A stretch of 64,000 bases of DNA from Candidatus Hydrogenedentota bacterium (GTDB lineage Bacteria > Hydrogenedentota > Hydrogenedentia > Hydrogenedentales > SLHB01): the NCBI GenBank assembly GCA_045863295.1, contig BTWA01000026.1, forward strand, positions 25,197 to 89,196. The letters are read 5' to 3'. A model generated the notes under the pieces. It searched no databases and was not told the origin of the DNA. It saw only the letters and a list, made by a program, of their open reading frames with translations. Shown here piece by piece: positions 2,127 through 21,463 of the stretch; the stretch's first letter is position 1, and every line of letters starts with the position of its first letter. The position numbers and the translations under genes are program-made.

Positions 2127-5100
2127 ATGGCGACATGGAAAACAGTCCGCGTCTTTATCTCCTCCACCTTCCGCGACATGCACGCGGAGCGGGACTACCT
2201 GGTCAAAGTGGTTTTCCCGCGGTTGCGAGAGCGGTTAGATCCGCACCGAATTCATCTAGTCGATATCGATTTGAGGTGGGGCATTACAGAGGAAGAAGCA
2301 GAGGACAACCGCGTACTCGACCTTTGCCTACAGCAAATTGACACCTGCCGCCCTTTCTTCATCGGCATCCTGGGCGAGCGCTATGGTTGGGTGCCCGGTG
2401 CTTTCGACGAGTCGGCTCTCTCGAAGTATGGCTGGATACAACACGCAACGGGTAAGAGCCTGACCGAACTGGAAATATTGCACGGCGTACTGCGCAATCC
2501 CGAGATGCGCAGTCATGCGTTCTTCTATTTCCGCAACCCTGCGTTTATTGATGACGTGCCCGTCACAAAACGAAGCGACCTGCGACCGGAGAACGCTGAA
2601 TCCAAAGATAAGCTGCTCAGTCTGAGAGAGGCCATTCGACAAACTCCTCTTTCGTACCCGCCAATGGAAAACTACCCTTGCCGTTACGCCGGGCTACGGA
2701 TCAACTGGCGGCTCGCGTCACAGAACCTTACCCAAGCCGACAGAGATGTGCTGCATACCTTGGCGGTGGACGGTGTAGTAGATTCAACCGAATACGCGGC
2801 ATTGGACGATCGGCTCCGGTCGGTGATCGACCAGAATAGCCACGTATTGCTGACTGGGCTTGAGATATTTGGGAACAGGGTATTTGACCAACTTTGGAGC
2901 GGCATCAAATTCGAGTACGAACTGCCCGATACCCCGTCAATTCATACGCTCCGGGAACGCGATCCACTCGCGGAAGATCAGGAATACCACGAGCGATTCA
3001 TGGAATCTCGGACACGGGTGTACATTGGCCGCGAGAATATTCAGCAGCAGCTTTTCGCCGTGGCCAGCAACGACGATACGTATCCATGCCTGGTAACCGG
3101 GCCGGCTGGCTCGGGCAAATCCGCCATACTTGCCAAATTTGCGACGGATTATTTGGCCGCGCATCCCGACGTGCTGGTCATACCTCATTTCGTCGGGGCG
3201 AGTCCCGGCTCGACAAGTCTCATGCACATGCTGCGTCGCTTCTGTCTGATCCTGGGCGATACGTTCGCTATAAAACACGTTCAAACGCAGGAAGAGAGCG
3301 AACAGTGGCAAGTCCCCGCCGAAGTCCCATTCGAACCTATCGAGCTCGCTTCCAGATTCAGGGATTATCTAAATCGTGTGCCAGGAGAAAAACGCGTCGT
3401 CTTTGTCATCGACGCTCTAAATCAACTCGACGAAACGGACAACGCGCATGCCCTTCATTGGCTGCCCCGCGAGTGGCCCACCCATGTGAAATGTATTGCC
3501 AGTTGCACTGCTCACGAGGATAATAACCCTGTCGTGCTGGCAGCATTCAAAGGGCGCCGCACGCACATTATCCGCGTACCGACGCTGACGGACGAAGAGC
3601 GCTTGGCCATTGTGACTGAGGTGCCCTCGCTAAGTGCAAAACGCCTCTCCTCAAGTCAGGTCCGTCTGCTGCTCGATAACCCGGCGACGAAAAACCCTCT
3701 GCTTTTGCTGGTCGCACTCGAGGAACTGCGTGGGTTCGGATCCTTCGATCAACTCAACGCCCGCATTGCCGCACTGCCCCGCGACGGCGATACCGTGACC
3801 GCGATTTTCACCCAGGTGATCGAACGTCTGGAAGAGGAATTTGACGCGCGGCAGGTGCGAAAAGTCCTTTCATGGCTCGCGTGCGCCCGAAGCGGACTGT
3901 CCGGGCGCGAACTACTAGAACTGCTCGAAGGCATAGGCGCATCAGAATCACGTTCGGACCTGTATCCCATCCTTCGCCAAATCCGCGCATACCTTCAGCA
4001 CCGTGGCGAGCTTTTCGATTTCTACCACGGAAGCTTCCGCGACGCCGTGGCCGGGAAATACGGTGCGCACGCCGGTGCCCAGGTCTTACATGCGGAGTTA
4101 GCCGCATACTTTCTCGCAGTGGCCGATCCAGGCGGGAACCGCTCTTGGACCGGGCAAAGCGCGCATAGCATCAATGAACTGCCTTTCCACCTCTACTCCT
4201 CTTGCGCCTACGAGACACTGGCCGCCGTACTGGGCGATACGATGTTTGCCGCGGCAAAATCAACGGGGGGCGCTGTCTACGACCTATTAACCGATTACCA
4301 GACCGCGATCCTCAGTTTTTCATCCGAGGGCAGTGATCAGACCCGCTTAGTTCAACTTGCCAGCATTTTGCGCCGATTTGCGCACGGACTCCACAACGCT
4401 CCCGAATGCAGCCTGCAACAGATACTTATTGGCATTGCAGCGCTGGAATCGCCAGACACATGTTTGGAGATGCAGGGAAACGTAATTGCCAATGAGCACG
4501 CGAGGACCGGCCCTGTTAAGCTTACCAGTTTCATTCCTCTGCACATGACTACCGGCGTCGCTCGGATCCCCGCGGATAACGATCGAGTCGTTGAGAATTC
4601 CGTTCTAAGACAAGCCTCCATTTTGTTGCGTTATAGAGGCGGAGAGTGGACAGAATTCTCGTCTGACTTCGAAGTGCTCGGAATGGGTTCGACCAATTCG
4701 GCCACCATGTCAACTATGGTCGCTGGCACGCAAGCCTTGGTGATGTGCAGCGCGAACGTTGCTCAGATTTACAGATATTGGCCCGTTGGCCAGCCTCTGA
4801 AACATCGCTGCACCCATCCCATTACTACAGCGGCCTGTTCGACGGATGATCGGTTCGTCCTGCTCGGATGCGCCGATGGCGCATTGGAACTGCTGATCTT
4901 GGAGGACGACGGGAGAGTCACAATCGAATCTAACCAATTAGGGACAATGGTCGTGGCGTCATGGTTTGATAGCGGTGGCGTCGCGGTAGCGGTGACTCGA
5001 AACGGTAGTATCCACTATCTACGGTGTGATTCGCATACTGTCACTTATTCGGCCCAAACCCCGCACCCGTGTGCTGCTGCATGCGGAGCCTGGCAGGGAA

Positions 5101-6437
5101 AAGCGTGTCTGCTATCCGAAGACAACCACCTATTCGTTCGTCGTCTGAATGCAGAGTTAGTTTGGGAAGACATGCTTCCGACTCGAGCGTACAGTCTGGC
5201 GTTTGCGGCTAAAACGGCCGATTCCGCTGCAACAATTGTATCAGGCCTGGAAGATGGTAATTTACAGGTGCGCGATGCCGAGTCGGGTAAACTCCAAGAA
5301 ACGATTCAGGTGAGCCATACCGCGTTGCAGCATGTCGAAATAGCACAAGCCGGAAATCTCATTCTGTGCCGCGACTCGGCACATAACGTCTATGTGATAT
5401 CGCCAAGACGAGGCGACGATGTCGCACGGTTCAGGTCTTGGCCGTTTTGCGGCCATATTCTCGATACTCACTGGAATGCACGGCTCAGAAGATTGTCGGT
5501 CGTCACCGCCGATGGTGAACCGTTAATAATCCACGAATCAGGTCATTCCGGCACCAATTGGAATATATCCCATGCGCCCAAGCTCGCCGCTCGGCTCGAC
5601 GATGCTAGTTTCGCCCCTGACGGCTCCATCACCGCACTCCATCGCGAACCGGGTGTAAGCCAGGTGTGGCGTCATTCTCCAGTCGGCAACAACGGGTCTA
5701 CTCCCGGCCGAACCCCTGAAACAGCCATTGCATTCAGAAGCCGGAGATTGTGGTCTGGACATGTGGCTCGTCTCTCACAACCTCAATGGCTTAAAATCGT
5801 GAAAGTTTCCCGATCAGGAAACGCATTTGCGATGTATTCCAATGCTGGGTTAATAAGTTGGGGGCGATTCCGGCTTTGGGGTATACGGCCGCATTGGGAA
5901 AAGTGGCCCAATCCAATCGACGAGTTCGCCATATCCGATAGAGGAACCGTAATCGTCTTGACACAGCAAACGGGCACGGCTATAGATAAACCACCAGCCC
6001 GGCTTCTTTTGTGCAAGGGTTTCAAGCACACATTGCTGAAAGATGGCTGGGGCGGGGGAACGCGTGGGATAGAGCGCGGAATGGCCAAACAGCTTCGGGG
6101 AATATCAATTAGCTGTGACGGACGAATTATCACGGCCATTGACCTCGCGCATAACCTGTGGGTATTCAATTTTGAACCCGACAGACCCGATGATCCTCCA
6201 AGTGGGGATATTGTGCTTTCAAACGTTGTAGCCTGCGAAACGTCGTCGTCAGGCGTCTTTTTCGCTGCATTGCACCTTGACATGACGATCCAAGTACTCT
6301 CGCGCGAAATGAAGGCCTGTCCCCAGAATCTCGGAAAACTCCTGCTGCCTGGCCAGGCTAACCATTTTCGCATCGATGAAACAGCGCGCTGTCTGATTGT
6401 CTCAGGACACAATTATGTTCAGTCGGTGAGATTCTAG
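2127..6437 (+). CDS. DUF4062 - NACHT/STAND NTPase - degenerate WD40 propeller protein (NLR-like, TEP1/NWD-like architecture)
   Basis: N-terminal RVFISSTFRDMHAERD…IDLRWG…FFIGILGERYGW…SLTELEI; Walker A GPAGSGKS; Walker B VVFVIDALNQLD; C-terminal WD-like repeats (LGCADGALEL, SGLEDGNLQVRD). Confidence 0.88.
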   Translation: MATWKTVRVFISSTFRDMHAERDYLVKVVFPRLRERLDPHRIHLVDIDLRWGITEEEAEDNRVLDLCLQQIDTCRPFFIGILGERYGWVPGAFDESALSKYGWIQHATGKSLTELEILHGVLRNPEMRSHAFFYFRNPAFIDDVPVTKRSDLRPENAESKDKLLSLREAIRQTPLSYPPMENYPCRYAGLRINWRLASQNLTQADRDVLHTLAVDGVVDSTEYAALDDRLRSVIDQNSHVLLTGLEIFGNRVFDQLWSGIKFEYELPDTPSIHTLRERDPLAEDQEYHERFMESRTRVYIGRENIQQQLFAVASNDDTYPCLVTGPAGSGKSAILAKFATDYLAAHPDVLVIPHFVGASPGSTSLMHMLRRFCLILGDTFAIKHVQTQEESEQWQVPAEVPFEPIELASRFRDYLNRVPGEKRVVFVIDALNQLDETDNAHALHWLPREWPTHVKCIASCTAHEDNNPVVLAAFKGRRTHIIRVPTLTDEERLAIVTEVPSLSAKRLSSSQVRLLLDNPATKNPLLLLVALEELRGFGSFDQLNARIAALPRDGDTVTAIFTQVIERLEEEFDARQVRKVLSWLACARSGLSGRELLELLEGIGASESRSDLYPILRQIRAYLQHRGELFDFYHGSFRDAVAGKYGAHAGAQVLHAELAAYFLAVADPGGNRSWTGQSAHSINELPFHLYSSCAYETLAAVLGDTMFAAAKSTGGAVYDLLTDYQTAILSFSSEGSDQTRLVQLASILRRFAHGLHNAPECSLQQILIGIAALESPDTCLEMQGNVIANEHARTGPVKLTSFIPLHMTTGVARIPADNDRVVENSVLRQASILLRYRGGEWTEFSSDFEVLGMGSTNSATMSTMVAGTQALVMCSANVAQIYRYWPVGQPLKHRCTHPITTAACSTDDRFVLLGCADGALELLILEDDGRVTIESNQLGTMVVASWFDSGGVAVAVTRNGSIHYLRCDSHTVTYSAQTPHPCAAACGAWQGKACLLSEDNHLFVRRLNAELVWEDMLPTRAYSLAFAAKTADSAATIVSGLEDGNLQVRDAESGKLQETIQVSHTALQHVEIAQAGNLILCRDSAHNVYVISPRRGDDVARFRSWPFCGHILDTHWNARLRRLSVVTADGEPLIIHESGHSGTNWNISHAPKLAARLDDASFAPDGSITALHREPGVSQVWRHSPVGNNGSTPGRTPETAIAFRSRRLWSGHVARLSQPQWLKIVKVSRSGNAFAMYSNAGLISWGRFRLWGIRPHWEKWPNPIDEFAISDRGTVIVLTQQTGTAIDKPPARLLLCKGFKHTLLKDGWGGGTRGIERGMAKQLRGISISCDGRIITAIDLAHNLWVFNFEPDRPDDPPSGDIVLSNVVACETSSSGVFFAALHLDMTIQVLSREMKACPQNLGKLLLPGQANHFRIDETARCLIVSGHNYVQSVRF

Positions 6438-6462: not shown

Positions 6463-7584
6463 ATGAACACTGCCAAGGACTACTTCGTGGGCGCAACTAG
6501 CGTCGTCAGTATGTGTTTACTTGTAAGTTCATTCGTGCTCATGTATCGCAACTTCTTTACTGAATCGCACTATTCGTGGTGGCTCATCGGCGGCCTCGCT
6601 TTACAGTTTCCAGTGATGGCAAAGATAATGGCGAAGCTCTTTCGCGGATCCGTCCGGCCGTCTGATGAAGTTATCAATCATGCTTTCGATCGCGTCTACG
6701 AACAGAGACTTCGTTCGGTTGTATTCAAATTTCCCGAAGGCTGGCGCTACAAGAAGCAAGGACGCGGCGTGCACAGTTTCTACATGCAAGAATGTGGCCA
6801 CGCGGCAGTAATACACGTCGAGCTTACATATCTCTTCGAAACCGAGATTGACTCGCTGGAGGGGTACTTGGCGTACGCAACGGAATTTGTGCGTGGGCTA
6901 AACGCCGAACTTATGTTTAACCGTGTCGCAGATCGATGGGGAATGCGTATTCACGAGTTTGCGTACAAGTCACCGCGTAGTTGCGGGCAACGGCTGACTG
7001 TGCCCTATCATGGCACTGAATATGGGTTCTTTTTGCGGACCGATGTCGCGGACCTGGCGCAGCCTGCAGGTAAGCTCTTCGATCACTTCTTGAGCCACGT
7101 GCGATTTGATCCCCCACCACTAAAACCGCAACTGGCATTTGGTGGACAATTGTCAGTTGCACTTCCAGCGGAATTCATGCCCGTCCAGACCCAAAAAACG
7201 GACACCGCAACTTGGAAAAGCACGACTCGAAAAGACTGTAGCATCTGGTTGCAGTACCGTCACGAATGTGAAGCACCAATGCGCCCTGAACTACTTCGCC
7301 CGCTGCTGAAAAGCTGCCCCCGTCCCGAACAGGGCGCGAACGACTTCGTCCGGGGACTAAAAAAGGGTCAAATCAGACTATCTGAAAATGGATTTGGGGG
7401 ATACATCTATTATCAAGCCACGGATAGGTGGGGTTGGTTAGCGGCGGTGGGAGACCTACCGTCGGGCGGGCGTGTTCTGTTCTGCCTTGACGACAAAGAC
7501 CCTGAACAGGCTCCATATTATGGGACATACTTTTATGAGCAAATCTCAATTGAAATTCTAGTTACCTTGTCGGAACGGCTGTAG
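6463..7584 (+). CDS. Hypothetical membrane-anchored protein (2 N-terminal TM helices plus soluble domain)
   Basis: 373-aa ORF 25 nt after the NACHT gene; two hydrophobic stretches in the first about 60 aa. Confidence 0.65.
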   Translation: MNTAKDYFVGATSVVSMCLLVSSFVLMYRNFFTESHYSWWLIGGLALQFPVMAKIMAKLFRGSVRPSDEVINHAFDRVYEQRLRSVVFKFPEGWRYKKQGRGVHSFYMQECGHAAVIHVELTYLFETEIDSLEGYLAYATEFVRGLNAELMFNRVADRWGMRIHEFAYKSPRSCGQRLTVPYHGTEYGFFLRTDVADLAQPAGKLFDHFLSHVRFDPPPLKPQLAFGGQLSVALPAEFMPVQTQKTDTATWKSTTRKDCSIWLQYRHECEAPMRPELLRPLLKSCPRPEQGANDFVRGLKKGQIRLSENGFGGYIYYQATDRWGWLAAVGDLPSGGRVLFCLDDKDPEQAPYYGTYFYEQISIEILVTLSERL

Positions 7585-7684
7585 TGGCGCAAGGCGACAC
7601 AATAATGATGAAATATGACATATGACCGATTCTACAAGATTGAAAGAGACGAGGTAAGGCTGACAGGAGCATGACTGGAAGAAG

Positions 7685-9445
7685 ATGACCTATACTTCGA
7701 AAATACGCGGGGGGTGGGAACCCGTTCGAGCTTTTTGGCGCGTTTGGGGGTGGCCTATTATCTGGGCGCTTGGGGTGGCGTCGTTTGTGTGCGGATATGT
7801 GGGGTTCGCGCAATATTACCAGTCACAGGCCGAAGTCCATTCGGTGTTGGAACTGGTGTACCGCACGCTCCAGCTCTACGTCCTCCAATCCGGAGCGTTG
7901 GACTATCCGGTCCCGCCTGCGCTTGAGGTCGCGCGGTTTCTTGCGCCCGCCGTGTTCGGTTACACGGCAACCCGCGCGCTGACATCGCTGCTGCGCGAAC
8001 AGTTTCTCACGTTATGGCTATGGCGGCGGCGGGAGCACGTCGTTGTGTGCGGACTTGGGCGCAAGGGCCTCCAAATCGCAAAAGACTTCAGCAACCGGTA
8101 CTCCGTCGTTGTTATCGAGCCCGATGCGCACAACGACCGCATCCGTCACTGCCGCGACTTTGGCGCGCGCGTCCTCATCGGCGACGCATCGGACATCGAC
8201 CTGCTACGGCAGGCGGGCGTGGCGCGCGCGCGTTACGTCGTCGCCACGACGGGCGACGACGGGGTAAATGTGGAAATCGTGCTCCACGCCCGCGAACTGG
8301 TGCAATCGCGCCCCGCGATGTTCTCGCATACCTGCACGTGCCTGGTTCACATTGTCGACTCCACATTGTGTGCGGTCTTCAAAATGGCGCCGACTTTTAC
8401 CTCAGGCAAGGATTGGTTCGAGGCAACGGTTTTCAACATATACGAAAACTGCGCAAGGCAACTGTTCGAAGTGCAACCGCTGGACCGCGTGCCCATCGGC
8501 GTTTCTAGCCGGGTGTCGGTCCACCTCGTCGTAATCGGATTCGGCCAAATGGGTCAGGCTGTCGCGCTGCAGGCGGCACGCGTGGGCCATTTCGCAAATG
8601 GACGCCGGCTGCGCATCAGCGTCGTCGATCGAAACGCGAAGGAAGCACACGCCGCCTTCCTTGCGTTGTATCCGCGATTTGGCGACATCTGCGACATCGA
8701 GTTCGTTCACGCACTCGCGGGAAGCGCGGAAGTCAACGAACGCTTGATCGCTTGGGCGACCGAAGAGAACGCGATGCTGACCGTTGCCATTTGCCTCGAC
8801 AACGACACGCGCAGTCTGACGCGGGCCCTGGCTATCGCGGAGAAGCTCCGGGAGTATAACGTGCCCGTTCGTGTTCGGATGGAAGAAGACACGGGACTGG
8901 CCAGCTTGCTCGTATGCGAGGGCGTATGTCATCCTTCGATTGCATACATCCGCGCATTTGGCCAGATTGATCGCGTGTGCGCGCTGAACCGGCTACTGTC
9001 CGAAGAGCAGGACCGCAAGGCGCGCCGGCTCCACAATCGGTTTATCGCCGTGGCGCGGCAAGATCTCAAGAGACCGAAAGATGACCCGGCGCTTCTGGAC
9101 TGGGAGAAACTCCCCGAAACATACAAGGAGTCGAACCGGCAGGCGGCGGATCATCTTCCGGTGAAACTGCGCGCAATCGGAATCACAGAGAATGGCGATC
9201 TCACACGCGAATTGAAAACACGTGAGATCGAAATTCTAGCCCGCATGGAACACGCGCGCTGGATGGCCGAGCGCCAGCTTTCTGGCTGGAAGTACGCGCC
9301 CGGGCCGAAGAACGACACGAAGAAGACGAACCCAAACCTCGTGGCATGGTCGAAACTCGATCGCGCGAATAAGGACAAAGATCGCGGCGCGGTCCGCGAA
9401 ATGGTAAGTTGGCTCAAAGTCCCAACGCACAGGAGTGCTACATGA
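7685..9445 (+). CDS. Channel-like TM segment + TrkA_N (RCK, NAD-binding) domains + two RyR repeats
   Basis: TM-pore helix-TM N-terminus; HVVVCGLGRKG, IGDASD.DLLRQAGV.RA; second Rossmann motif VVIGFGQMGQ; RyR motifs WEKLPETYKESNRQAA and LARMEHARWMAERQLSGWKY…PNLVAWSKL. Confidence 0.88.
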   Translation: MTYTSKIRGGWEPVRAFWRVWGWPIIWALGVASFVCGYVGFAQYYQSQAEVHSVLELVYRTLQLYVLQSGALDYPVPPALEVARFLAPAVFGYTATRALTSLLREQFLTLWLWRRREHVVVCGLGRKGLQIAKDFSNRYSVVVIEPDAHNDRIRHCRDFGARVLIGDASDIDLLRQAGVARARYVVATTGDDGVNVEIVLHARELVQSRPAMFSHTCTCLVHIVDSTLCAVFKMAPTFTSGKDWFEATVFNIYENCARQLFEVQPLDRVPIGVSSRVSVHLVVIGFGQMGQAVALQAARVGHFANGRRLRISVVDRNAKEAHAAFLALYPRFGDICDIEFVHALAGSAEVNERLIAWATEENAMLTVAICLDNDTRSLTRALAIAEKLREYNVPVRVRMEEDTGLASLLVCEGVCHPSIAYIRAFGQIDRVCALNRLLSEEQDRKARRLHNRFIAVARQDLKRPKDDPALLDWEKLPETYKESNRQAADHLPVKLRAIGITENGDLTRELKTREIEILARMEHARWMAERQLSGWKYAPGPKNDTKKTNPNLVAWSKLDRANKDKDRGAVREMVSWLKVPTHRSAT

Positions 9446-9723
9446 GCTACGCCCCAAGACCAATCGACACATCAGGTGTGGTGTTGACAGAAGAAATTGC
9501 AAAGCTGACGGAACTGCTCGCGGAAAATGCCCACGAGCATTGGGCCAAGCAGCGTCTCAGCGATGGCTGGCGCTACGGTCCCACGCGGGACGATGCCAAG
9601 AAAGAACATCCCTGCCTCATTCCCTACGGTGATCTCCCCGATTCCGAAAAGACATACGACCGAAAAATGGCCATAGAAACCCTGAAGGTAATCCTGGCCC
9701 TCGGCTATCGCATAGCGAAATAG
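9442..9723 (+). CDS. Stand-alone RyR (ryanodine receptor repeat) domain protein, 93 aa
   Basis: YAPRPIDTS.V.L…LAENAHEHWAKQRLSDGWRYGPTRDDAKKEHPCLIPYGDLPDSEKTYDR; SD AGGAG at 9431; ATGA overlap with the upstream stop. Confidence 0.92.
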   Translation: MSYAPRPIDTSGVVLTEEIAKLTELLAENAHEHWAKQRLSDGWRYGPTRDDAKKEHPCLIPYGDLPDSEKTYDRKMAIETLKVILALGYRIAK

Positions 9724-9765
9724 ACGATTGATACGGACCAATTAACGATTTCGAAAGGAGGCCGC

Positions 9766-12552
9766 ATGAAAACGGTCGTCGTGACTGGCGATGTCATGGT
9801 GGACCACCACCTTTACGAAGGCAAACGCTTGACGGCATCCGCGACCGATCAACCGGGCTTTAAAGTGTGCCGGCAGCATGGAGGCGCCATGGCCGTTTGC
9901 GATCTCGTTAACGCGGTCATAAACCAGTCGATAACGGACTCTGCTGCCGAGATGGAATGCAAGGCGAAGGCCGTAGAAGACGCCAGACAGGCCTGCGCGA
10001 AAGACAGTGAAAAGGAAGCTGCACAACAGAAACTCGCGGAGGCGGAAGAGGCCCTCCAGAAACATAAGCGGGTAAGAGAATCTGACTGGAAAGCATGCTT
10101 CGGTCTGACGACGCCCCTGGAACACGAGATACCCTGCGGGCATCATGCCCTCTCCATATGGAAACCATTCCAAACAATGGAAGGCAATGAGGAGAAGAAA
10201 GTCTGGCGGGCGGATTTGCTGATGGGCTACGGCCACGATGACGCTCCAGCAAAATGCGACACGGAGAAGTGCGAGTATACACCCAAAGTCCTTTCCCCGC
10301 CGCCGCCACGCGCGGATGTCCTGGTGTTGGACGACGGCGGCTTCATTTTTCGACACCGTTTCCAACGCGATTGTTGGCTTTTGCCATCGGCGCAGGAAAG
10401 TAAGCCCCATTGGATTGTAATGAAGATGAGCGGGCCGGTCTGCCAAGGCGATCTGTGGTCGCACCTCAAGACGTATGGAGATCGGCTTATCGTCGTGGTC
10501 TCCGCGAACGATTTACGCCAAGAGTGCGTACATTTGGGCGAAGGACTTTCATGGGAGCGCACCGTAGAAGAACTGCGGGACGCGCTGCTAACAAACCCTG
10601 CATTGAGCGACTTGGTGTCCGTTCCGCGCCACTTAATTGTGCTGTTCTCGGCCGACGGCGCGCTGTGGTTGGATAGGTCTGGCGAACAACTCAAAGCGAC
10701 GCTTGTCTTCGACGCCGGTGGCATTGAGGGCTGGTGGGGGCGGAAGATCGAGGGCAAGGCCTTTGGATACATGTCGTGCATGGTTGCCTCTGTTGTTCGG
10801 GCGGCGATGCACGATTCAGAGGAACCGGCGATCGATCCGGCGGTTCGGGCAGGCCTCGCCGCAATGCGGGACCTTGCCCGGTGGGGACACGGTGAGGTAA
10901 ACGACGGCTGGCCATCCGGCTTTCCGTGCGACCGGTTGGCGCGGGTGATCGTTCGGGGCGGCAGCGGCTTCGCCGTCACGCGCGTCCCGTGGAGCGAGGC
11001 CGAACGAAACCTCTATGCCCCCGCACCCGAAAATCCAGACGGGAAGTCTCCTTGGCGGATTGTCGAGACGTCTCAGTGCCCCTTTGGAGACGGAAAGACA
11101 CCCTCGCTGCTCGGCCTGGCCTCGCAGGTAGTGATCTATGGAGAACTGGCCATTCGCGCACTCCCCCATGCCCGATTTCGCAACCTGCTAACAGCCGACC
11201 GTATTGAAATCGAGGCCCTGCGATCCATCGAAGTGCTGATGAACCGGTATCTCGACGAGACAAAACCAAAGCGGCCGCTCTCGATAGGCGTGTTTGGCCC
11301 GCCGGGCGCCGGCAAATCATTTGGCGTCCGGCAGCTTGCCGACGACATCTTTGGCGCAAAAGCATGGTTGGAATTTAATCTGTCACAGTTCAAGGATTCC
11401 AAGGATCTAATCGGCGCATTTCATCAAGTGCGGGACACGGTGCTAAGCGGGCAAACCCCTACCGTCTTCTGGGATGAATTCGATTCCCGCGAATATGAGT
11501 GGCTCCAGTACCTGCTCGCGCCGATGCAGGATGGGCGCTTCCAGGAAGGCCAGATCAGTCACTACATTGGCAAGTGTGTCTTCATTTTCGCCGGAGCGAC
11601 CGCCTATTCGTTTAACGAGTTTGGACCTGCGAAGCCGCCGGACAAACGGTTCGATGCAGACGCGTGGAAAAAATTCAGCTTGCGCAAAGGCCCGGATTTC
11701 CACAGCCGCTTGGACGCCTATTACGACGTGCTCGGGCCCAATCCGCGCACGGTATTGCCCCACGATGGCTGCGGCTCGCAACGCGTACCGGACCCAACAG
11801 ATGTCTGCTACCCGCTGCGGCGGGCCTTGCTGATTCGATCTCTCTTGAAAGCCAAGAATTCGGCGCTCGATTTCGATCCGGAATTGCTCCACGCCCTGCT
11901 GCAAACTGCCGAATACACGCACGGGGCACGCTCCCTCGAAAAACTCGTTACAGCACTCATTCCCACAAAAAAAGGCCAGTCAATCCGGCGCTCGGCATTG
12001 CCGCCGCCGGCCCAACTCGCGATGCACGTGACGGAACCAGAACAGTTCATACACATGCTGGGCCGACACGTCCAATATCGCAATCCTGAAACGATCAATG
12101 CCATTGCACAAGGCATCCACGAAACGTGGCGTGAGCTTTCGGCAATAGAGCATTGGAAGATGCAGCCCGCCTATGACATGCCATACGAATTGCTTGGAGA
12201 TGTGGAAAAGGATGAAAACCGTGCGGCCGCCCGCCGCATCCCGGACATCCTCGCCCTCGCCGGACTGCGGATCGAGCAGTCCGATCTGCCACACGGCGCC
12301 GGCGTCGAAGACCAGTTGAAGCAACCGCATCAACTGCGGCGGTTGGCAGAAGCCGAACACGAAAGGTGGATGGCGCATCGCATCAAGAACGGATGGCGTT
12401 ATAGCGAGCAGCGTGACGACGCAAAGAAGCTGCACCATGCGCTCGTGCCGTATGCCGACTTGGCTGAGGCCGACCAGAAAAAGGATCAGAATTCGGTGAA
12501 GCACTTCCCCGAAATGCTGCGCCGCGCGGGTTACCGTATCGTTTGGGCATGA
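9766..12552 (+). CDS. PfkB/HldE-like N-terminal region + P-loop (AAA-like) ATPase + two C-terminal RyR repeats
   Basis: MKTVVVTGDVMVD start; Walker A GVFGPPGAGKSF; Walker B VFWDEFD; RyR motifs IAQGIHETW…PYELL..VEKDENR and LAEAEHERWMAHRIKNGWRY…LVPYADL; SD AAGGAGG. Confidence 0.88.
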   Translation: MKTVVVTGDVMVDHHLYEGKRLTASATDQPGFKVCRQHGGAMAVCDLVNAVINQSITDSAAEMECKAKAVEDARQACAKDSEKEAAQQKLAEAEEALQKHKRVRESDWKACFGLTTPLEHEIPCGHHALSIWKPFQTMEGNEEKKVWRADLLMGYGHDDAPAKCDTEKCEYTPKVLSPPPPRADVLVLDDGGFIFRHRFQRDCWLLPSAQESKPHWIVMKMSGPVCQGDLWSHLKTYGDRLIVVVSANDLRQECVHLGEGLSWERTVEELRDALLTNPALSDLVSVPRHLIVLFSADGALWLDRSGEQLKATLVFDAGGIEGWWGRKIEGKAFGYMSCMVASVVRAAMHDSEEPAIDPAVRAGLAAMRDLARWGHGEVNDGWPSGFPCDRLARVIVRGGSGFAVTRVPWSEAERNLYAPAPENPDGKSPWRIVETSQCPFGDGKTPSLLGLASQVVIYGELAIRALPHARFRNLLTADRIEIEALRSIEVLMNRYLDETKPKRPLSIGVFGPPGAGKSFGVRQLADDIFGAKAWLEFNLSQFKDSKDLIGAFHQVRDTVLSGQTPTVFWDEFDSREYEWLQYLLAPMQDGRFQEGQISHYIGKCVFIFAGATAYSFNEFGPAKPPDKRFDADAWKKFSLRKGPDFHSRLDAYYDVLGPNPRTVLPHDGCGSQRVPDPTDVCYPLRRALLIRSLLKAKNSALDFDPELLHALLQTAEYTHGARSLEKLVTALIPTKKGQSIRRSALPPPAQLAMHVTEPEQFIHMLGRHVQYRNPETINAIAQGIHETWRELSAIEHWKMQPAYDMPYELLGDVEKDENRAAARRIPDILALAGLRIEQSDLPHGAGVEDQLKQPHQLRRLAEAEHERWMAHRIKNGWRYSEQRDDAKKLHHALVPYADLAEADQKKDQNSVKHFPEMLRRAGYRIVWA

Positions 12553-12616: not shown

Positions 12617-14497
12617 TCACGCCGGCAGGTGCGGTCCGTGGAACGCCAGCGATGCGGCCCACTCGTAGTTCTCCGAGGCCATGATGTCGCTTGCCGTTCG
12701 GACGTGGGCGCGAATTTCGTCGGGGGTTTCCGCTTTCCGAAGGTCCTCGGCGACATCGTTCAACAACCTCGCCATATTCGCGGACCGGCTCGAGATCCGC
12801 TCGCCATCGAGCAGGGTGTTGATCGCCTGAAACGTTGCGCCCCACAACGGCAGCAGCACGGTGATGCCAAACAGGACGGCCGTGACCGTGCCCATGCCAT
12901 GCTTGCCCGGTTCGCCGTGGCCGATCCCTATAGCGTGGAAGAAGGCGGCTACCAGCGTCAGCGAGAAGAGCACCAGTCCCACGCGGTGCAGCGTCTTTGG
13001 CAACTTCAGTTTCCTCTCGACATTATCCATGTGCCATTGGGCCTGCGGCGTGATCCAGTCCTGCTCGATGAAATCTCGCAATGCCAGCCACCCGGCCTTT
13101 TCGTCCGCGGGATGTAGCGCGGGGCCGGAGGCGCGCATGATGGCCACGTCCACCCAGTCCGCGGGCCGCCGGTAAAAAGGAAGGTGGGATACATCGCGGC
13201 GTTGCCCCGACGCGGTCATTTCGCCCAGCAAGTCCGTGTACAATTTCGCGCGCAGGCGCTCGGCGAAATGGCGGTCGTGCAGCCATTTTTCGTGCCAGCG
13301 CTCCTTTCGCGATATGCGCAGCAACGCCAGAATTGCGACCATCGCCAGCACTTCGAGAAAGGCCGCCGCATACCACGACGGCGCAAACAACATCTGCATG
13401 ACGGAAACCGTTACGCCGGAAGCGGCGAGTGTAAAAAGCCCTCGCGCGCTTCTAAAGTGCAGATTCTGGTAGTGAAGCGACAACACGTCGCTCCGGGCAT
13501 AGTGCGCCAGCGTTTGCCATGTCTTGTCATTGAGAACCCACTCCGGCGGGTGAGTTTTCTGCGCGGTGTCCAGCATCGAATCCTGGTGTTCGCGAAATTT
13601 CCGCGCAATCGATTCCGCCGAAACCGCGGTGTCGCGGTTGTACGCCGCCAGCGCGTGATAACTTGGCGAAAACTCCTTCGCAGTCTGCGGGAGTTCGCAC
13701 GTTTTCAATTTGACTGGCGTCTCTTCTGAATCGGAAGATTCCGGCACTACTAACTTCGCGGGAGTTCGAGGGTTGTCCGCGTTAATCCATAGAATGGTTC
13801 GCCCGTGCAGCAGCGCGTGCTTCACGATATCGCCGGTCCCCCCCCATCCTTTGGCGGGTTTCCCGTCCCACACGGCGATGAGTATGTCGCACTGGTGCAC
13901 GACCAACTCGCCCGCTTCCCGGTACAGACAGTCTCGATTCGAACCGTGCGCGTCCAGCATGCCTGCGATTCCCGGCGATGCGTCCAGCGCGAGGAGCTTG
14001 CGAAACGCCTCCAAACTCGGCGCGTCGAAATCGTGTTCGTATTCCTCGGCATCAAACGGTAGAACCACCTGCAATTGGGAGTCCTTCCGCGCCAGTACAG
14101 CCTCCGCCACGATAATGTCCGCGCCCTGCGCCAACGCCGAAACGACGCGCCATCGCAATGGTGTCGTCATGGACGGATCGACCACGGCCGGTGTCACCGG
14201 TACGGCCGGCCAAATCCACTTCAGCGCGGCAACCAACGCCCGATCGGCCCGCCTCTTGATGGTCTGTTGATTGGTGTGTGGCCCAAGCGGATTTGATCCA
14301 GCCGATTCCAGCACGCGCTGGACATGATCCAACAGCGCGTCCACGGCCAGTCGCACGCCCGCTTCATCTCCCAACGCCCGATGGCCTGTCACGCCGATCC
14401 GCAACTCGTACGGTATGGGTTCAGGCAGGCCGACGGAACTCGCGGAACTCCCGCTCGTTTCACTTCCCACTACAGGAGACATGATCTTCCCTCGCAC
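12617..14497 (-). CDS. SLOG-superfamily nucleotide-binding domain fused to tandem SLATT-like 2-TM domains
   Basis: LRIGVTGHR, VSALAQGAD, VVLPF, YREAG..VV..CDILIAVWDG…GGTGDIV (SLOG); two TM hairpins with WHEKWLHDRHFAERLR and terminal ENYEW (SLATT-like). Start may be ATG 14482. Confidence 0.82.
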   Translation of the reverse strand: MRGKIMSPVVGSETSGSSASSVGLPEPIPYELRIGVTGHRALGDEAGVRLAVDALLDHVQRVLESAGSNPLGPHTNQQTIKRRADRALVAALKWIWPAVPVTPAVVDPSMTTPLRWRVVSALAQGADIIVAEAVLARKDSQLQVVLPFDAEEYEHDFDAPSLEAFRKLLALDASPGIAGMLDAHGSNRDCLYREAGELVVHQCDILIAVWDGKPAKGWGGTGDIVKHALLHGRTILWINADNPRTPAKLVVPESSDSEETPVKLKTCELPQTAKEFSPSYHALAAYNRDTAVSAESIARKFREHQDSMLDTAQKTHPPEWVLNDKTWQTLAHYARSDVLSLHYQNLHFRSARGLFTLAASGVTVSVMQMLFAPSWYAAAFLEVLAMVAILALLRISRKERWHEKWLHDRHFAERLRAKLYTDLLGEMTASGQRRDVSHLPFYRRPADWVDVAIMRASGPALHPADEKAGWLALRDFIEQDWITPQAQWHMDNVERKLKLPKTLHRVGLVLFSLTLVAAFFHAIGIGHGEPGKHGMGTVTAVLFGITVLLPLWGATFQAINTLLDGERISSRSANMARLLNDVAEDLRKAETPDEIRAHVRTASDIMASENYEWAASLAFHGPHLPA

Positions 14498-14943
14498 TGG
14501 AACGCGCGACGCAGTCTACGCGCGGAGAATTGCGTCAACCGCGCCCGCGGACCAATTGCCGGGCGAGTCCATCCATTTCCTTGATCACGTGCAGTCGACC
14601 TGCGCGGTATCGTTTCTGAGTTTCGTATTGCGGCCAGAACCCGGCAGGTCAACGAGACTCTTCACGGTTTCCACGTCATCGCACACCCCCCAGAATGTTG
14701 TGTCTGTGGATCCTATCGACAACCACTCCATAAATCAACGGACTGCAATTTCAAATTCAACAGTACTCAACAACACCTCTACTAGGCGTTCAGTAGCCTC
14801 AACACGCATCAATCTCGTTTGGCGTGGTAACTCTACCTCCAGATGTATACTTTGAGACCACTAACAATCCCGCTCATTGGACATCTTGCGGCACATCCTG
14901 AAATCCCGAACATGCAGCTTAACCGCTACAGGAGTCCATCGCC

Positions 14944-15172
14944 GGAACTCCTTAACCTGGACCGCCAAAGCGCAGGAGAAGGAGTTTCACGGTGGACGAT
15001 TTCGACGGTCAAAGCCATGCCACATGGGATCGCAGATACCACATACTGCTTCTCCCTAAGCTCTGGAGAAAGGTGTTGTACCGGTAATTGCGAAAGCAAC
15101 TTGAAGGAATATTTCACTGATTGGCGGGGCAAAAGGAGTGCCGGTTCAATAGGGCATCAAATGGCCGAACAT
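14944..15172 (+). pseudogene. tnpA: Decayed IS200/IS605-family tnpA (Y1 HUH transposase) 5' fragment with left-end hairpin
   Basis: GTG 14992 gives DDFDGQSHATWDRRYHILLLPKLWRKVLYR*LRKQLEGIFH*LAGQKECR, then a frameshift to GHQMAEH. Stops at 15085 and 15118. Upstream AACTCCTT (14946-53) / AAGGAGTT (14979-86) inverted repeat covers the SD. Confidence 0.78.
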
Positions 15173-15560
15173 TCCTTCAACCACACATCCGGTCACAGGC
15201 GCTAGGCTCCGTGTTGCCAATTGCCGTTTCGGCTTAAGAAGATTGTTCTACTTTGTGTGCCACTTTATTTGAAGAACTCCGTGCTGTTAGTGGAAGGTGG
15301 AATGTGCCAAGTGACATGGATAACGATCAAAGACGTTTCACAGGGCACCTTGGAGGGCGGAGGCACGACCGTTACCCCCGATACTCTCTAGAATCTCGCT
15401 CAAAGCAAGTCAGCGCGTCTGCCGTGTCTTTGTGTGACACATTCTTTGAAGTATATGTGCTACACGGCGTTGCATGTGGCACAGAGACCGAAGGCTGGAA
15501 ACGGTTTGGACTCTGTAAACTACAATGATTTCCACGGGTTACGGGTCATAGGTGGAAGCC

Positions 15561-15606
15561 GCTCATAACCCAATGGTCGTAGGTTCGAATCCTACCCCCG
15601 CTACCA
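15561..15606 (+). repeat. 3' half of tRNA-Met(CAT), initiator-like; att-site remnant copy 1
   Basis: G-CTCATAA-CCCAATGGTCGTAGGTTCGAATCCTACCCCCGCTACCA: anticodon loop, T arm, acceptor strand and CCA present; no D arm or 5' acceptor strand upstream. Confidence 0.9.
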
Positions 15607-15616
15607 ATTATGTATC

Positions 15617-15648
15617 AGGGACTTGCAAGCAATTGCAGTTCCCTTTTT
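15617..15648 (+). terminator. Rho-independent terminator-like hairpin after tRNA fragment 1
   Basis: AGGGACTTGCAA-GCAA-TTGCAGTTCCCT-TTTT (imperfect stem). Confidence 0.65.
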
Positions 15649-15666
15649 GTGTGCCCAAAATGGCCC

Positions 15667-15688
15667 ACTGTACACGAAACTGTACACG
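15667..15688. repeat. Tandem 10-bp direct repeat ACTGTACACG, candidate integrase arm-type sites
   Basis: Copies at 15667-15676 and 15679-15688, about 60 nt from the att-like tRNA fragment. Confidence 0.5.
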
Positions 15689-16021
15689 GTCCGGCGGTGA
15701 AGACTGGACACGTGGCACTCCGTCGCACGTTGCTCCCCACCGCCGTTCATCGAACTCCCGGAGTGCAACAGCCTCTTTGCGTTTACCTATGGCACAATCG
15801 ACCAAGACGACGCCGTGTAGAGCGGCATGCAGACGTTGCGCGAGATACCGCTGGACTGGTGAAATTGGGTCCTGTAGAATCACCACTGCGTCGGCATTCA
15901 GTCTCAACCGGAATCTTCTTAAACCAAAATTTGGTTGATGACAACGGTGCTTCCAGCGGACAAACGCGATTTCGAGTGCTGGAACCAGGCTCCGTATCGG
16001 CCCGATTCATCTGACCACGCC

Positions 16022-16105
16022 CACACCGAAGGCTCCGGCGAACACTATCTGCCGCCCTATTGGATGGGCCGCTACTACGGTCTCAACGCGGTGCCTCTCA
16101 AGTAA
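16022..16105 (+). pseudogene. C-terminal relic of a gene related to the 34729-36915 protein
   Basis: HTEGSGEHYLPPYWMGRYYGLNAVPLK* aligns with …REGYHYLLAYYLGRAHGFISE*. Confidence 0.55.
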
Positions 16106-16137
16106 CATCGAGGACAGCATTGTCGCCGGTCAGGCCT

Positions 16138-18243
16138 CTATTGCTGCTCATGCTGTGTGCTTGACGCTTCGATGACGCACGTCTCGGGACGGAGTCGCCG
16201 CGCGAGTTCCGTCGCCGTCATGGCATTGGTCGGGACGGGAAGGTCGTTATTCAGCCAATCTGCCCCGGCCACCCATTGGGTCTCTCCGGTCTCAAGTGCG
16301 CCAATGGATGGCGAGCGCCCGCCGTTGCCCTCAGCGATTCCAGGCACCAGCACGCCGGTGCCATCCAGCGGGCCGCCCGGCTTGGGGCGAAAATCATACT
16401 GAGCCGGATCCACAAAAAATTGCCCTTCTGACCCCGGCACAAGGGTCGCATTAGAATCGATGGCGCCCGGTTCAGACGTGAGTGGAAGCACGAACTCCCG
16501 CTCGGCATTCTTGTAGTCGCTACGCCAGGACATGCGGTCGAGAAACGAATAGGCAACATTGTTGCGCACGCGCCACCCGGCGCGTTCGGCGGAAGAAATC
16601 TCCGGCTCGAAGACAACGATGAGCCCGCCTTTTAGATTGTTCACCACAAGCGTGTTGTTGTATCCCTCCAGTTGGAAGCCCTGCATCTTACAGCCGACGG
16701 AAGCGTTCCAGACCAAGTTGTGATGGAAAACGATATCGCGCCCCTGAATATCCACGCGATAGCCAATGCCGCGAATATCGTGAAGCCAGTTGTGATTGAC
16801 CACTGTACCCGACATTCTCCGTCCGATCGGCACATACAGCGACGAAACATCCACGCAATATAAACCGACGTTGAACACGTGGCAGTATTCCACCTTGGCG
16901 GGGCTCGCACCCCGCGGGTAGATAGCCACGCCGCCAACGTTGTACACCGTATTGCGGCGGATAATGTTGGGAGACGGGGCGCGCGCGGCGGCTTTTTCGT
17001 TGCCCGTTGAAGTACCGGTTCGCCTCGTTCGCGCATTGGCCAGGCTTTCCGCGCCGTCTATGGTGATGCCGGGACCGGGATGTCGGCCGTGCAGGTTGCT
17101 GTCGTGCACGATGCAATTCTCCACCCGGTTGCCCGAGCCTTCGACCTCCAGCGCGCCATCCACCGCCCATTCAATCAGGCAACGCTCAAGGACATTCTCG
17201 TCGCCTTCGATGCGAAGATTTTTCTGCAATTTCTCCGCCGTCTTAAGGCCGGGGAATAGTTTCGGCGTCGATGGATACAGAAATCGGCACCCGCGCAGAA
17301 CGATGCGTCGGCTTTGCGCAAAGCGCACATTGCATTTGTGAAACTCCAGACCGCTAATGACGATATTGCTGACGCCGTTGCCTCCCATTCCAGCGACGCG
17401 CGCCTTTACCGAGACCGCGTTCTGCCGCGGCTCCAGGCCATCGGGAGCAATCAGAAGCAGTTCGCGCTGCTCCACGTCATGCCACCATTCGCCGGGCGCA
17501 TCGAGTGCCCCGCGGGCCGCTATGAAAAACCGGTTGCCTTCTAAGCCGTAGCTCGCGATTCGTTCCGGCATCGAGTCCTCGCCCCAGGCTCTGCCTTCCA
17601 TATCCGTCGAATCGTAGCGCAGCGTCGCGCTGCCGGATTGATGCTCGGTCACAACGCGGGTGAAGCAATTGTTGCCTTTGCTCAGCTTCAGGTAGACCAA
17701 TCCACCGCGCAAATCCTGGCCCGATTCCGCCATCGCCGGGCTTTCGATCTGGCCGAGCGTAGTGCCATGACCTGTTAGTGCCCACTTTTTCGCCGGCTGC
17801 CAGTTCTCTTCCCACGAGCAATTGGGCCACCGCGCCTCGACCAGCATGCGTTCATCAAAAAAGACCGCTTCAATGGACTCCTTTGCATCTACTTTCATCG
17901 CCCATATCGTGTCACTCTTTTGCGTCCAAGTGCCGGTGACGATGTCGGAGCCATCAATGATGACGCGTTCGTTTTGGTAACTCGTAAACGTGATGGACTT
18001 TTCTTCGTCGCCGGAAGTTCTGAGTATGGCCATCTCCCGGTAGACCCCGGCGCGGATGAAACAGGTATCGCCCGCTACAGCCGCGTCGGCGGCACGCTGA
18101 ATTGACTTAAACGGCCGATCGATAGCCGTGCCCGAATTCGAATCGTTTCCGTCCGGCGCCACAAAATAATTCGCGGCATACAGCGGCGCCGGCGGAATCA
18201 GAAACAGGGCGGTCATGGAACAGAGCAAAAGCGTGTGCTTCAT
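16138..18243 (-). CDS. Secreted right-handed parallel beta-helix protein (pectate-lyase-like; probably carbohydrate-active)
   Basis: Signal peptide MKHTLLL…; YFVAPDGNDSNSGT…PFKSIQRAAD…GDT.FIRAGVYRE; Asn-ladder repeats; C-terminal FVDPAQYDFRP…SIGALE. Confidence 0.8.
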   Translation of the reverse strand: MKHTLLLCSMTALFLIPPAPLYAANYFVAPDGNDSNSGTAIDRPFKSIQRAADAAVAGDTCFIRAGVYREMAILRTSGDEEKSITFTSYQNERVIIDGSDIVTGTWTQKSDTIWAMKVDAKESIEAVFFDERMLVEARWPNCSWEENWQPAKKWALTGHGTTLGQIESPAMAESGQDLRGGLVYLKLSKGNNCFTRVVTEHQSGSATLRYDSTDMEGRAWGEDSMPERIASYGLEGNRFFIAARGALDAPGEWWHDVEQRELLLIAPDGLEPRQNAVSVKARVAGMGGNGVSNIVISGLEFHKCNVRFAQSRRIVLRGCRFLYPSTPKLFPGLKTAEKLQKNLRIEGDENVLERCLIEWAVDGALEVEGSGNRVENCIVHDSNLHGRHPGPGITIDGAESLANARTRRTGTSTGNEKAAARAPSPNIIRRNTVYNVGGVAIYPRGASPAKVEYCHVFNVGLYCVDVSSLYVPIGRRMSGTVVNHNWLHDIRGIGYRVDIQGRDIVFHHNLVWNASVGCKMQGFQLEGYNNTLVVNNLKGGLIVVFEPEISSAERAGWRVRNNVAYSFLDRMSWRSDYKNAEREFVLPLTSEPGAIDSNATLVPGSEGQFFVDPAQYDFRPKPGGPLDGTGVLVPGIAEGNGGRSPSIGALETGETQWVAGADWLNNDLPVPTNAMTATELARRLRPETCVIEASSTQHEQQ

Positions 18244-21407: not shown

Positions 21408-21453
21408 GCTCATAACCCAAAGGTCGTAGGTTCGAATCCTACCCCCGCTACCA
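21408..21453 (+). repeat. 3' half of tRNA-Met(CAT); att-site remnant copy 2
   Basis: Same 46-mer as 15561-15606 with one substitution (CCCAAAGG vs CCCAATGG); no 5' half upstream. Confidence 0.9.
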
Positions 21454-21463
21454 ATTTGATTTC

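Follow-up and report, generated by a model that had tools for sequence, protein, structure and literature searches.

A 64,000-nucleotide stretch of a Candidatus Hydrogenedentota bacterium genome (NCBI GenBank assembly GCA_045863295.1, contig BTWA01000026.1, positions 25,197 to 89,196 of the forward strand; this whole stretch is the window, and coordinates count from its first letter) contains three confirmed co-directional open reading frames, at 7685-9445 (586 amino acids, aa), 9442-9723 (93 aa) and 9766-12552 (928 aa), which carry repeats of the kind found in animal ryanodine receptors (RyR). A preliminary description of the locus, made from the letters, had noted that the first two genes are coupled by an ATGA overlap; this is exact (ATG at 9442-9444, TGA at 9443-9445), and the ATG start of the 93-aa protein is backed by the N-termini of homologous single-domain (solo) proteins. 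The same description counted five RyR repeats and proposed a Pfam scan as a check on the count. All five are present, but the scan (PF02026, R12-type, gathering cut-off 27.4 bits) returned three matches: the second repeat of the 586-aa protein (9182-9421, +, E 4.2e-10; residues 506-577, E 3.8e-11, 43.5 bits), the solo RyR protein, whose domain takes up almost the entire gene (9442-9723, +; residues 3-92, E 1.2e-35, 122 bits), and the second repeat of the 928-aa protein (12295-12549, +, E 2.1e-15; residues 858-925, E 4.2e-16, 59.4 bits). The degenerate upstream copies of the 586-aa protein (9020-9190, +) and the 928-aa protein (12010-12291, +) stayed under the cut-off when scanned alone (E 0.045, 14.4 bits and E 0.0067, 17.1 bits, respectively) and were recovered by a family-specific RyR profile (residues 446-502, independent E value (i-E) 8.4e-7, and residues 749-842, i-E 9.7e-6), which was trained on relatives of these very proteins in the related loci and is not an independent test. 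Compared with the motif LA..(E)H..W…GW.Y…H..L.P(Y/W)..L…K..(D/N)R of the preliminary description, the first repeat of the 586-aa protein has F for W, no GW.Y segment and N for D, and that of the 928-aa protein is without the GW.Y...H segment and likewise has N for D; both repeats of the 928-aa family are nonetheless conserved columns in a 26-sequence alignment. The repeats of the two tandem pairs are spaced 73-80 residues apart, and the entire 6.3-Mb genome yields three RyR matches, 3/3 of them in this cluster.

The conserved letters of the motif (H-x2-W...H...D) appear to be the ligand pocket of RyR proteins recently described from phages. As given in the available portions of two reports, RyDEP, a homodimer of a phage RyR domain, cleaves 2'- and 3'-cyclic ADP-ribose (2'cADPR and 3'cADPR); in the domain bound to ADP-ribose (ADPR), H75, W78, H100 and D117 serve in ligand contact and catalysis, with six of eight homologues binding signals without cleaving them (PMC13232231), and RyR Tad is a sponge whose pocket (H129/W132, H154 and D171) binds 3'cADPR with a dissociation constant (KD) of 43 nM and 2'cADPR and canonical cyclic ADP-ribose (cADPR) at sub-micromolar level (bioRxiv 10.64898/2026.06.04.730250). 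The same portions indicate that the two proteins have a pocket spacing of 3/22/17 in common, that phage RyR domains dimerize back-to-back via helices alpha1 and alpha4, and that the corresponding pocket of the animal R12 domain is an ATP and drug site (PMC13232231; bioRxiv 10.64898/2026.06.04.730250). In the window, the pocket is complete in the solo RyR protein (H31/W34/H56/D73, spacing 3/22/17) and in the second repeat of the 928-aa protein (H865/W868/H890/D907), where all four residues are invariant in 26/26 sequences. The second repeat of the 586-aa protein (pocket letters HWWNWDR) has the H, W and D, with N instead of the phosphate-contacting H. The first repeats of both pairs carry N instead of D and are missing the second H; the first repeat of the 928-aa protein keeps H785 and W788, has no phosphate-contacting H and carries N818 for D, with H785 and N818 invariant in the 26-sequence alignment. 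The same division runs through the related loci, in which N occupies the D position in 53/54 first repeats of the ATPase and 7/8 first repeats of the TrkA-type membrane protein, and D is kept in 52/54 second repeats of the ATPase and 10/10 solo proteins. Because of this N/D split between first and second repeats, each tandem pair looks like one canonical pocket with a degenerate partner. From the back-to-back dimers of the phage proteins, we infer that the two repeats of a pair close on each other within the chain and that the solo protein forms homodimers.

Searches against solved structures gave, for the solo protein, the RyR-like protein of B. thetaiotaomicron (3nrt, E 1.6e-30), and a comparison with repeat 1 of animal RyR2 (residues 861-950) gave an i-E of 1.2e-24 with 41 of 90 positions identical, as counted on the alignment; the protein encoded at 9442-9723 is thus unusually close to an animal repeat. 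A phmmer search of the PDB with the C-terminus of the 928-aa protein matched repeat 2 only.

These residues bear directly on the earlier proposal that homotypic RyR-RyR pairing wires the ATPase to the membrane protein, with the solo RyR protein serving as an adaptor or a competitive decoy in the manner of death-domain proteins. Several features agree with such a role: phage RyR domains do, in the portions of the reports available, self-associate as back-to-back dimers, translation of the solo gene is coupled to that of the gene for the membrane protein, and the solo domain could in principle replace a degenerate first repeat. To place the genes in context, we counted neighbours with local profiles in the best 80 loci related through the ATPase gene, 79 of which have the ATPase core. 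A small (solo) RyR gene occurs in 9/79 loci (one being probably a frameshifted ATPase end), and in five of these nine it lies upstream of the ATPase gene, at 50 bp or less in L004, L011, L032 and L042 and at 522 bp in L024. However, the residues conserved across the families are those of the ligand pocket, with no obvious docking surface among them, and a tandem pair could meet the known dimer interface within one chain. A small RyR gene is absent from the flank examined in 70/79 ATPase loci, and a full TrkA-RyR gene in about 69/79; since the ATPase mostly occurs without either partner, being wired to the membrane protein cannot be how it acts in general. We therefore regard protein-protein adaptation as improbable. 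What remains of the proposal is a functional link among the three genes by a shared module (TrkA-RyR in 9/79 loci, solo RyR in 9/79), but not heterotypic pairing, and a decoy that would act on a ligand but not on a protein. The RyR modules most likely read a nucleotide alarm signal derived from nicotinamide adenine dinucleotide (NAD) instead of gluing three proteins together.

A separate possibility, that the solo RyR gene is a stray phage anti-defence gene, was rejected: an ATGA overlap joins it to the host gene before it, it turns up again immediately ahead of the ATPase gene in phyla far apart, and no phage genes were seen among the neighbours scanned.

The two proteins that carry the tandem pairs differ in what the pairs are mounted on. 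The 586-aa membrane protein (7685-9445, +) consists of a membrane module with two transmembrane segments (2TM), a TrkA_N/RCK Rossmann domain (8039-8305, Pfam E 9.7e-26), a second Rossmann-like domain and the RyR pair. Its N-terminal membrane module has a conserved Y-x2-LQL-x4-SG element in a nine-sequence family alignment, in which a canonical K+ filter was not seen. Apart from a weak SLATT match of the 626-aa protein described below, an NCBIfam scan gave only TrkA/Kef-type partial matches well under their cut-offs. In the 928-aa protein, the pair follows an N-terminal domain (9766-11169, +) and an AAA+ core (11173-12045, +). The AlphaFold2 model of the N-terminal domain (about 470 residues; pLDDT 87.1, pTM 0.89) gave 292 Foldseek matches at E <= 0.001, the best being 2abq (E 4.7e-9), and the matches listed are all PfkB-family kinases, with TM-scores of 0.34-0.39 by query and about 0.5 by target. 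No Pfam family falls on residues 1-495 and a 27-sequence profile found no PDB sequence; the domain is thus predicted to be ribokinase/PfkB-like in fold without being a member of that sequence family. D316 and E321 are invariant in the family alignment, at what we take to be the site of the PfkB kinase motif. The Walker A (GPPGAGKS) and Walker B (WDEFD) motifs of the AAA+ core are likewise invariant in 26 sequences; the core scores below the Pfam cut-offs (AAA, 16.8 vs 21.2 bits; bpMoxR, 17.7 vs 27 bits), and its nearest solved sequences are ClpC/Hsp104 modules (ClpC, E 0.0023).

The genes on either side supply a candidate source of the signal and a further candidate receiver. Upstream, 1.2 kb from the RyR cluster, lies a gene for a 1436-aa NLR-like sensor (2127-6437, +) composed of a DUF4062 domain (residues 8-116, 2148-2474; Pfam E 2.3e-17, 63.4 bits vs a cut-off of 24.7), a STAND NTPase (AAA_16, E 3.9e-11, plus NACHT) and a WD40-type propeller, for which PADLOC gave one weak match to PtuA (E 0.008). 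In the accessible text of two preprints, DUF4062 is a TIR-like NADase that yields ADPR in anti-phage systems, STAND/Avs proteins among them, and is present in about 1-15% of reference genomes (bioRxiv 10.64898/2026.05.01.722283; 10.64898/2026.09.04.749371). Downstream and convergent with the ATPase gene is a 626-aa SLOG-SLATT protein (12617-14497, -), in which the SLOG fold is placed at about 13778-14410 and the 2TM region, SLATT-like in type, at about 12638-13501. Its N-terminal part has no Pfam match and no Pfam SLOG model, and the SLOG-family profile found nothing credible among PDB sequences (best E 0.11). The structure model of this part (pLDDT 82.4) matched YpsA (2nx2, E 2.3e-6), DprA, ShosA and LOG in Foldseek, as well as the SLOG domain of ThsA with 3'cADPR (7uxs, E 0.015, probability 0.97); the modelled fold is that of a SLOG domain, the type of signal-binding domain found in Thoeris effectors.

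The company that the ATPase keeps elsewhere is similar. At least 262 stretches with the architecture of the 928-aa protein were confirmed in species-representative genomes, 175 relatives among the candidates scored are of the full-length type, and the N-terminal domain recurs in at least 1085 protein clusters at E <= 1e-30; the relatives are spread over many bacterial phyla and some archaea (two of the best 80 loci are archaeal). A TIR gene is present in 39/79 loci and a DUF4062 gene in 19/79; one or the other lies within 8 kb of the ribokinase-like/AAA+/RyR gene in 51/79 loci and within 2 kb in 44/79. In a check of the TIR profile, Pfam TIR_2 was among the matches listed for 27 of 28 sampled proteins. 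The sensor parts of these TIR and DUF4062 proteins are very varied, with WD40, TPR, LRR, ankyrin, Kelch and other domains. A separate SLOG gene occurs in 38/79 loci (within 500 bp in 29 of these), SLATT in 15/79, a TrkA-type N-terminal module in 14/79 and the full 2TM-TrkA-RyR architecture in 9/79. Two fusions join these parts in one chain: in L053:3288-6635 the ATPase-RyR pair is fused to a SLOG domain, and in L083:10406-12388, on an archaeal contig, TIR_2, the AAA+ core and RyR form a single protein. A RelA/SpoT-SLOG-RyR protein is found in 7/79 loci and NUDIX in 5/79.

The RelA/SpoT-like proteins with an LSDAT-type SLOG domain and RyR (L005:1807-4359, L009:3448-6021, L029:1704-4619 and L063:1244-3820) are a further RyR-bearing architecture of these neighbourhoods: one is fused to NUDIX and others have a NUDIX gene adjoining. 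Comparison of this family with the SLOG family by hhalign gave a probability of 0.1, with no relation detected at the level of profiles.

Taken together, we favour, with a probability of about 0.6, a Thoeris-like network of NAD-derived signalling in which the RyR modules would serve the host as receptors, with the solo RyR protein as a sponge or a glycosidase that buffers the signal. The five repeats would then form three ligand-sensing units, two C-terminal tandem pairs and a free 93-aa homodimer, one pair being carried by a channel-like 2TM-TrkA protein and the other by a ribokinase-like/AAA+ ATPase. The DUF4062-STAND-WD40 protein, replaced by a TIR-STAND protein in relatives, would detect an invader and cleave NAD+; an ADPR-derived product would occupy the RyR pockets and the SLOG domain, and this ligand would turn on the AAA+ machine and two membrane effectors, the TrkA-RyR protein and the SLOG-SLATT pore. 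The solo RyR protein, whose synthesis the ATGA overlap would tie to that of the membrane protein, would absorb or cleave stray ligand, and its buffering would set the threshold or reset the system. Domains, folds, pocket residues, the island and the gene associations are what the analysis shows; the ligand, the signalling direction, the pairing of tandem repeats within one chain and the part played by the solo protein are inferred.

A number of observations weigh against this reading. The pocket residues by themselves do not fix the ligand as ADPR-derived, since the animal R12 pocket, in the available portions of the reports, also binds ATP. The N that replaces the phosphate-contacting H in the second repeat of the TrkA-RyR protein means that the ligand of this protein may differ. 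A TIR profile found no canonical TIR gene in the whole genome, window included. In the putative NADase, the DUF4062 alignment is reliable to about residue 90 and leaves the catalytic Glu unplaced (E97 in KpSwz, according to the accessible text; the window's protein has TELE at residues 113-116). Furthermore, DUF4062 is so far described, in the parts of the literature consulted, solely as a NAD-depleting effector that makes linear ADPR and not as a signal maker, so that the STAND gene could be a self-contained system that merely sits in the same island. The SLATT assignment also scores under its cut-offs (NCBIfam SLATT_1, 25.7 vs 41 bits; Pfam DUF4231, 22.6 vs 24.7 bits; Pfam SLATT_3, E 0.013), as it does in homologues (SLATT_1, 20-21.5 bits vs 26.3), and PADLOC gave no match for the RyR, ATPase, 373-aa or SLOG-SLATT proteins. 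Finally, neither TIR nor DUF4062 is found in the flank of 28/79 loci, several on short contigs, and the loci were sampled via the ATPase gene, so that the counts do not speak for RyR genes in general.

Two of these findings, the lack of a PADLOC match and the 28/79 loci with neither TIR nor DUF4062 in the flank, suit a housekeeping sensor, in which RyR and TrkA/RCK would read ATP, ADP or NAD+ to control ion flux and the AAA+ machine, with the NLR-like neighbours as coincidental cargo. TrkA_N is typical of regulators of K+ transport, and the description of the animal R12 pocket as an ATP and drug site points the same way. Coincidence, however, sits poorly with a TIR or DUF4062 gene in 51/79 loci, often with the variable sensor domains typical of immune receptors, when DUF4062 is given as present in just about 1-15% of reference genomes in the accessible text; the patchy distribution among relatives, the island location and the link to SLOG-SLATT also speak against it, and we consider a housekeeping role quite unlikely. 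Equally, the portrayal of DUF4062 as solely a NAD drainer, as far as the consulted parts go, would fit a damage-control function, whereby ADPR set free by the NADase is detected by the RyR proteins, which then contain or mend the harm, the ribokinase-like domain modifies or recycles ADPR or ribose and the solo RyR protein degrades cyclic by-products, either to protect the host or to deny ADPR to phages. The predicted ribokinase fold of the N-terminal domain and the NUDIX and RelA/SpoT-type nucleotide enzymes in related loci are in keeping with this, as is the report, in its available portion, that the RyDEP product ADPR feeds the pathway by which phages rebuild NAD+ (PMC13232231). The module is nevertheless tied to pore- and channel-type proteins (SLATT, 2TM-TrkA), which are nearer to killing effectors than to repair enzymes, and the kinase motifs of the PfkB-like domain are not established; we judge damage control unlikely.

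If the RyR modules are indeed host receptors for a NAD-derived signal, the locus and its relatives offer a testable answer to what cellular RyR domains do: the pocket with which phage RyR domains bind or destroy cyclic ADPR immune signals would be used by hosts as a receptor on effectors encoded beside TIR/DUF4062 NLR-like sensors. This would add a new class of receptor and new types of effector to NAD-derived immune signalling, STAND-fused NADases, which have been set aside as NAD drainers, might also make signals, and the long-debated link between cADPR and the ryanodine receptor would gain an evolutionary rationale. In its boldest form, which we advance tentatively and rate well short of even odds, the proposal is that NLR-like TIR/DUF4062 NADases also signal to host RyR receptors through an ADPR-type product, with free RyR proteins as the off-switch, as a bacterial counterpart of the route from plant TIR-NLRs to helper channels, and that the animal R12 domain descends from an immune receptor for ADPR- or cADPR-type nucleotides.

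Set against known systems, the window's proteins match none completely. With RyDEP and RyR Tad they share PF02026, the pocket residues and the 3/22/17 spacing, and the 93-aa protein is single-domain as well; however, the former are encoded by phages and act against host signalling, whereas those of the window are encoded in a host island, and two of its three units are tandem pairs fused to membrane/RCK or PfkB-like/AAA+ parts. The type I Thoeris system pairs the TIR protein ThsB with the SIR2-SLOG effector ThsA through 3'cADPR, and type VII pairs a TIR protein with the SLATT effector ThsH through canonical cADPR, according to the available portion of a preprint on TIR systems that defines types up to XI and discards TIRs in Avs/STAND proteins as NAD-depleting effectors (bioRxiv 10.64898/2025.12.03.692087). 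Like Thoeris, the locus has a candidate TIR-type NAD-cleaving enzyme beside putative effectors with ligand-sensing domains, including a SLOG fold and a candidate SLATT-like 2TM region, and true TIR genes are present in 39/79 related loci, but the window itself has DUF4062 fused to a STAND NTPase and WD40 and no TIR synthase; the main text of that preprint makes no mention of RyR, ribokinase, AAA or TrkA. The DUF4062/NIR systems (Swarozyc, Avs2-NIR, Vulcan and Vesta) resemble the 1436-aa protein in its Avs-type combination of DUF4062, STAND NTPase and repeats, yet in the accessible text they are self-contained NAD depleters, and their main texts mention no RyR or SLOG partner (bioRxiv 10.64898/2026.05.01.722283; 10.64898/2026.09.04.749371). 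The animal R12 domain has strong sequence similarity to the solo RyR protein and the same tandem two-repeat arrangement; in contrast to the bacterial second repeats and solo proteins, which have D, both RyR2 repeats have N, and they lie within a 5000-aa Ca2+ channel at a spacing of about 114 residues rather than 73-80. A literature search for RyR together with Thoeris, SLOG or TIR returned only the two phage preprints and no host RyR receptor.

Within the genome, the system is confined to one place. A whole-genome scan found one SLOG, one SLATT, three RyR and one ATPase gene, all at this cluster, and two DUF4062 genes, both less than 20 kb from it. An intact tRNA-Met(CAT) gene, the sole whole tRNA of three copies, lies at C26:6742-6818 (L085:1456-1532), and about 49 nt of its 3' part are repeated in the same orientation at window positions 15561-15609 (+), likely the right-hand attachment repeat of an island, and about 21408-21456; a 32-nt core of the repeat has three occurrences on the contig, all in one orientation. 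The fragments were recognized by eye and by pattern search, with Rfam (14400-16300) and ARAGORN (1-24000) giving no match and no gene, respectively. Because an intact tRNA-Met is followed by two partial copies in the same orientation, the cluster lies in an island of about 34 kb that is followed by a second one of about 6 kb; no integrase was seen among the frames examined. A full-length ATPase match was found in one of 30 relatives searched (36% identity), and five others match the RyR part only. We conclude from these sequence features that the genes probably belong to a horizontally acquired tRNA-Met island.

Further proteins surround the cluster. A 373-aa protein whose N-terminus is hydrophobic is encoded in the interval (6463-7584, +) that separates the NADase-STAND gene from the TrkA-RyR gene; it belongs to no family in Pfam, PADLOC or NCBIfam and has no homologue in the 80 related loci; the ESM Atlas gave sub-threshold leads (scores <=0.88, TM <0.5), with a PsbP-like protein as the only named lead. 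Promoters and terminators predicted between 1800 and 16200 were near expectation (5 vs 5.9 and 20 vs 14.0 (standard deviation 3.3) in shuffled sequence, respectively). Upstream of the cluster, a second DUF4062-STAND protein of 841 aa (L084, G000:C26:8000-27200, at 7113-9638, -) is adjoined by two giant proteins with WD40 only, of 1096 aa (L084, 3826-7116, -) and at least 1215 aa (L084, 2-3646, -), and the three resemble an NLR-type sensor array split into parts. The interval from this DUF4062 gene to that of the window holds, still inside the same island, two homologues of Pup ligases (PafA/Dop-like; L084:13736-15424 and L084:15658-17421, both -) and a family-less protein of 894 aa (L084:11055-13739, -). 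Directly upstream of the DUF4062 gene of the window, a 605-aa AAA+ protein with a sigma-54 interaction domain is encoded at 95-1912 (+; L084:17292-19109), and similar proteins of about 550 aa are found near the ATPase gene in L025, L033 and L039, the one in L033 having been checked with Pfam.

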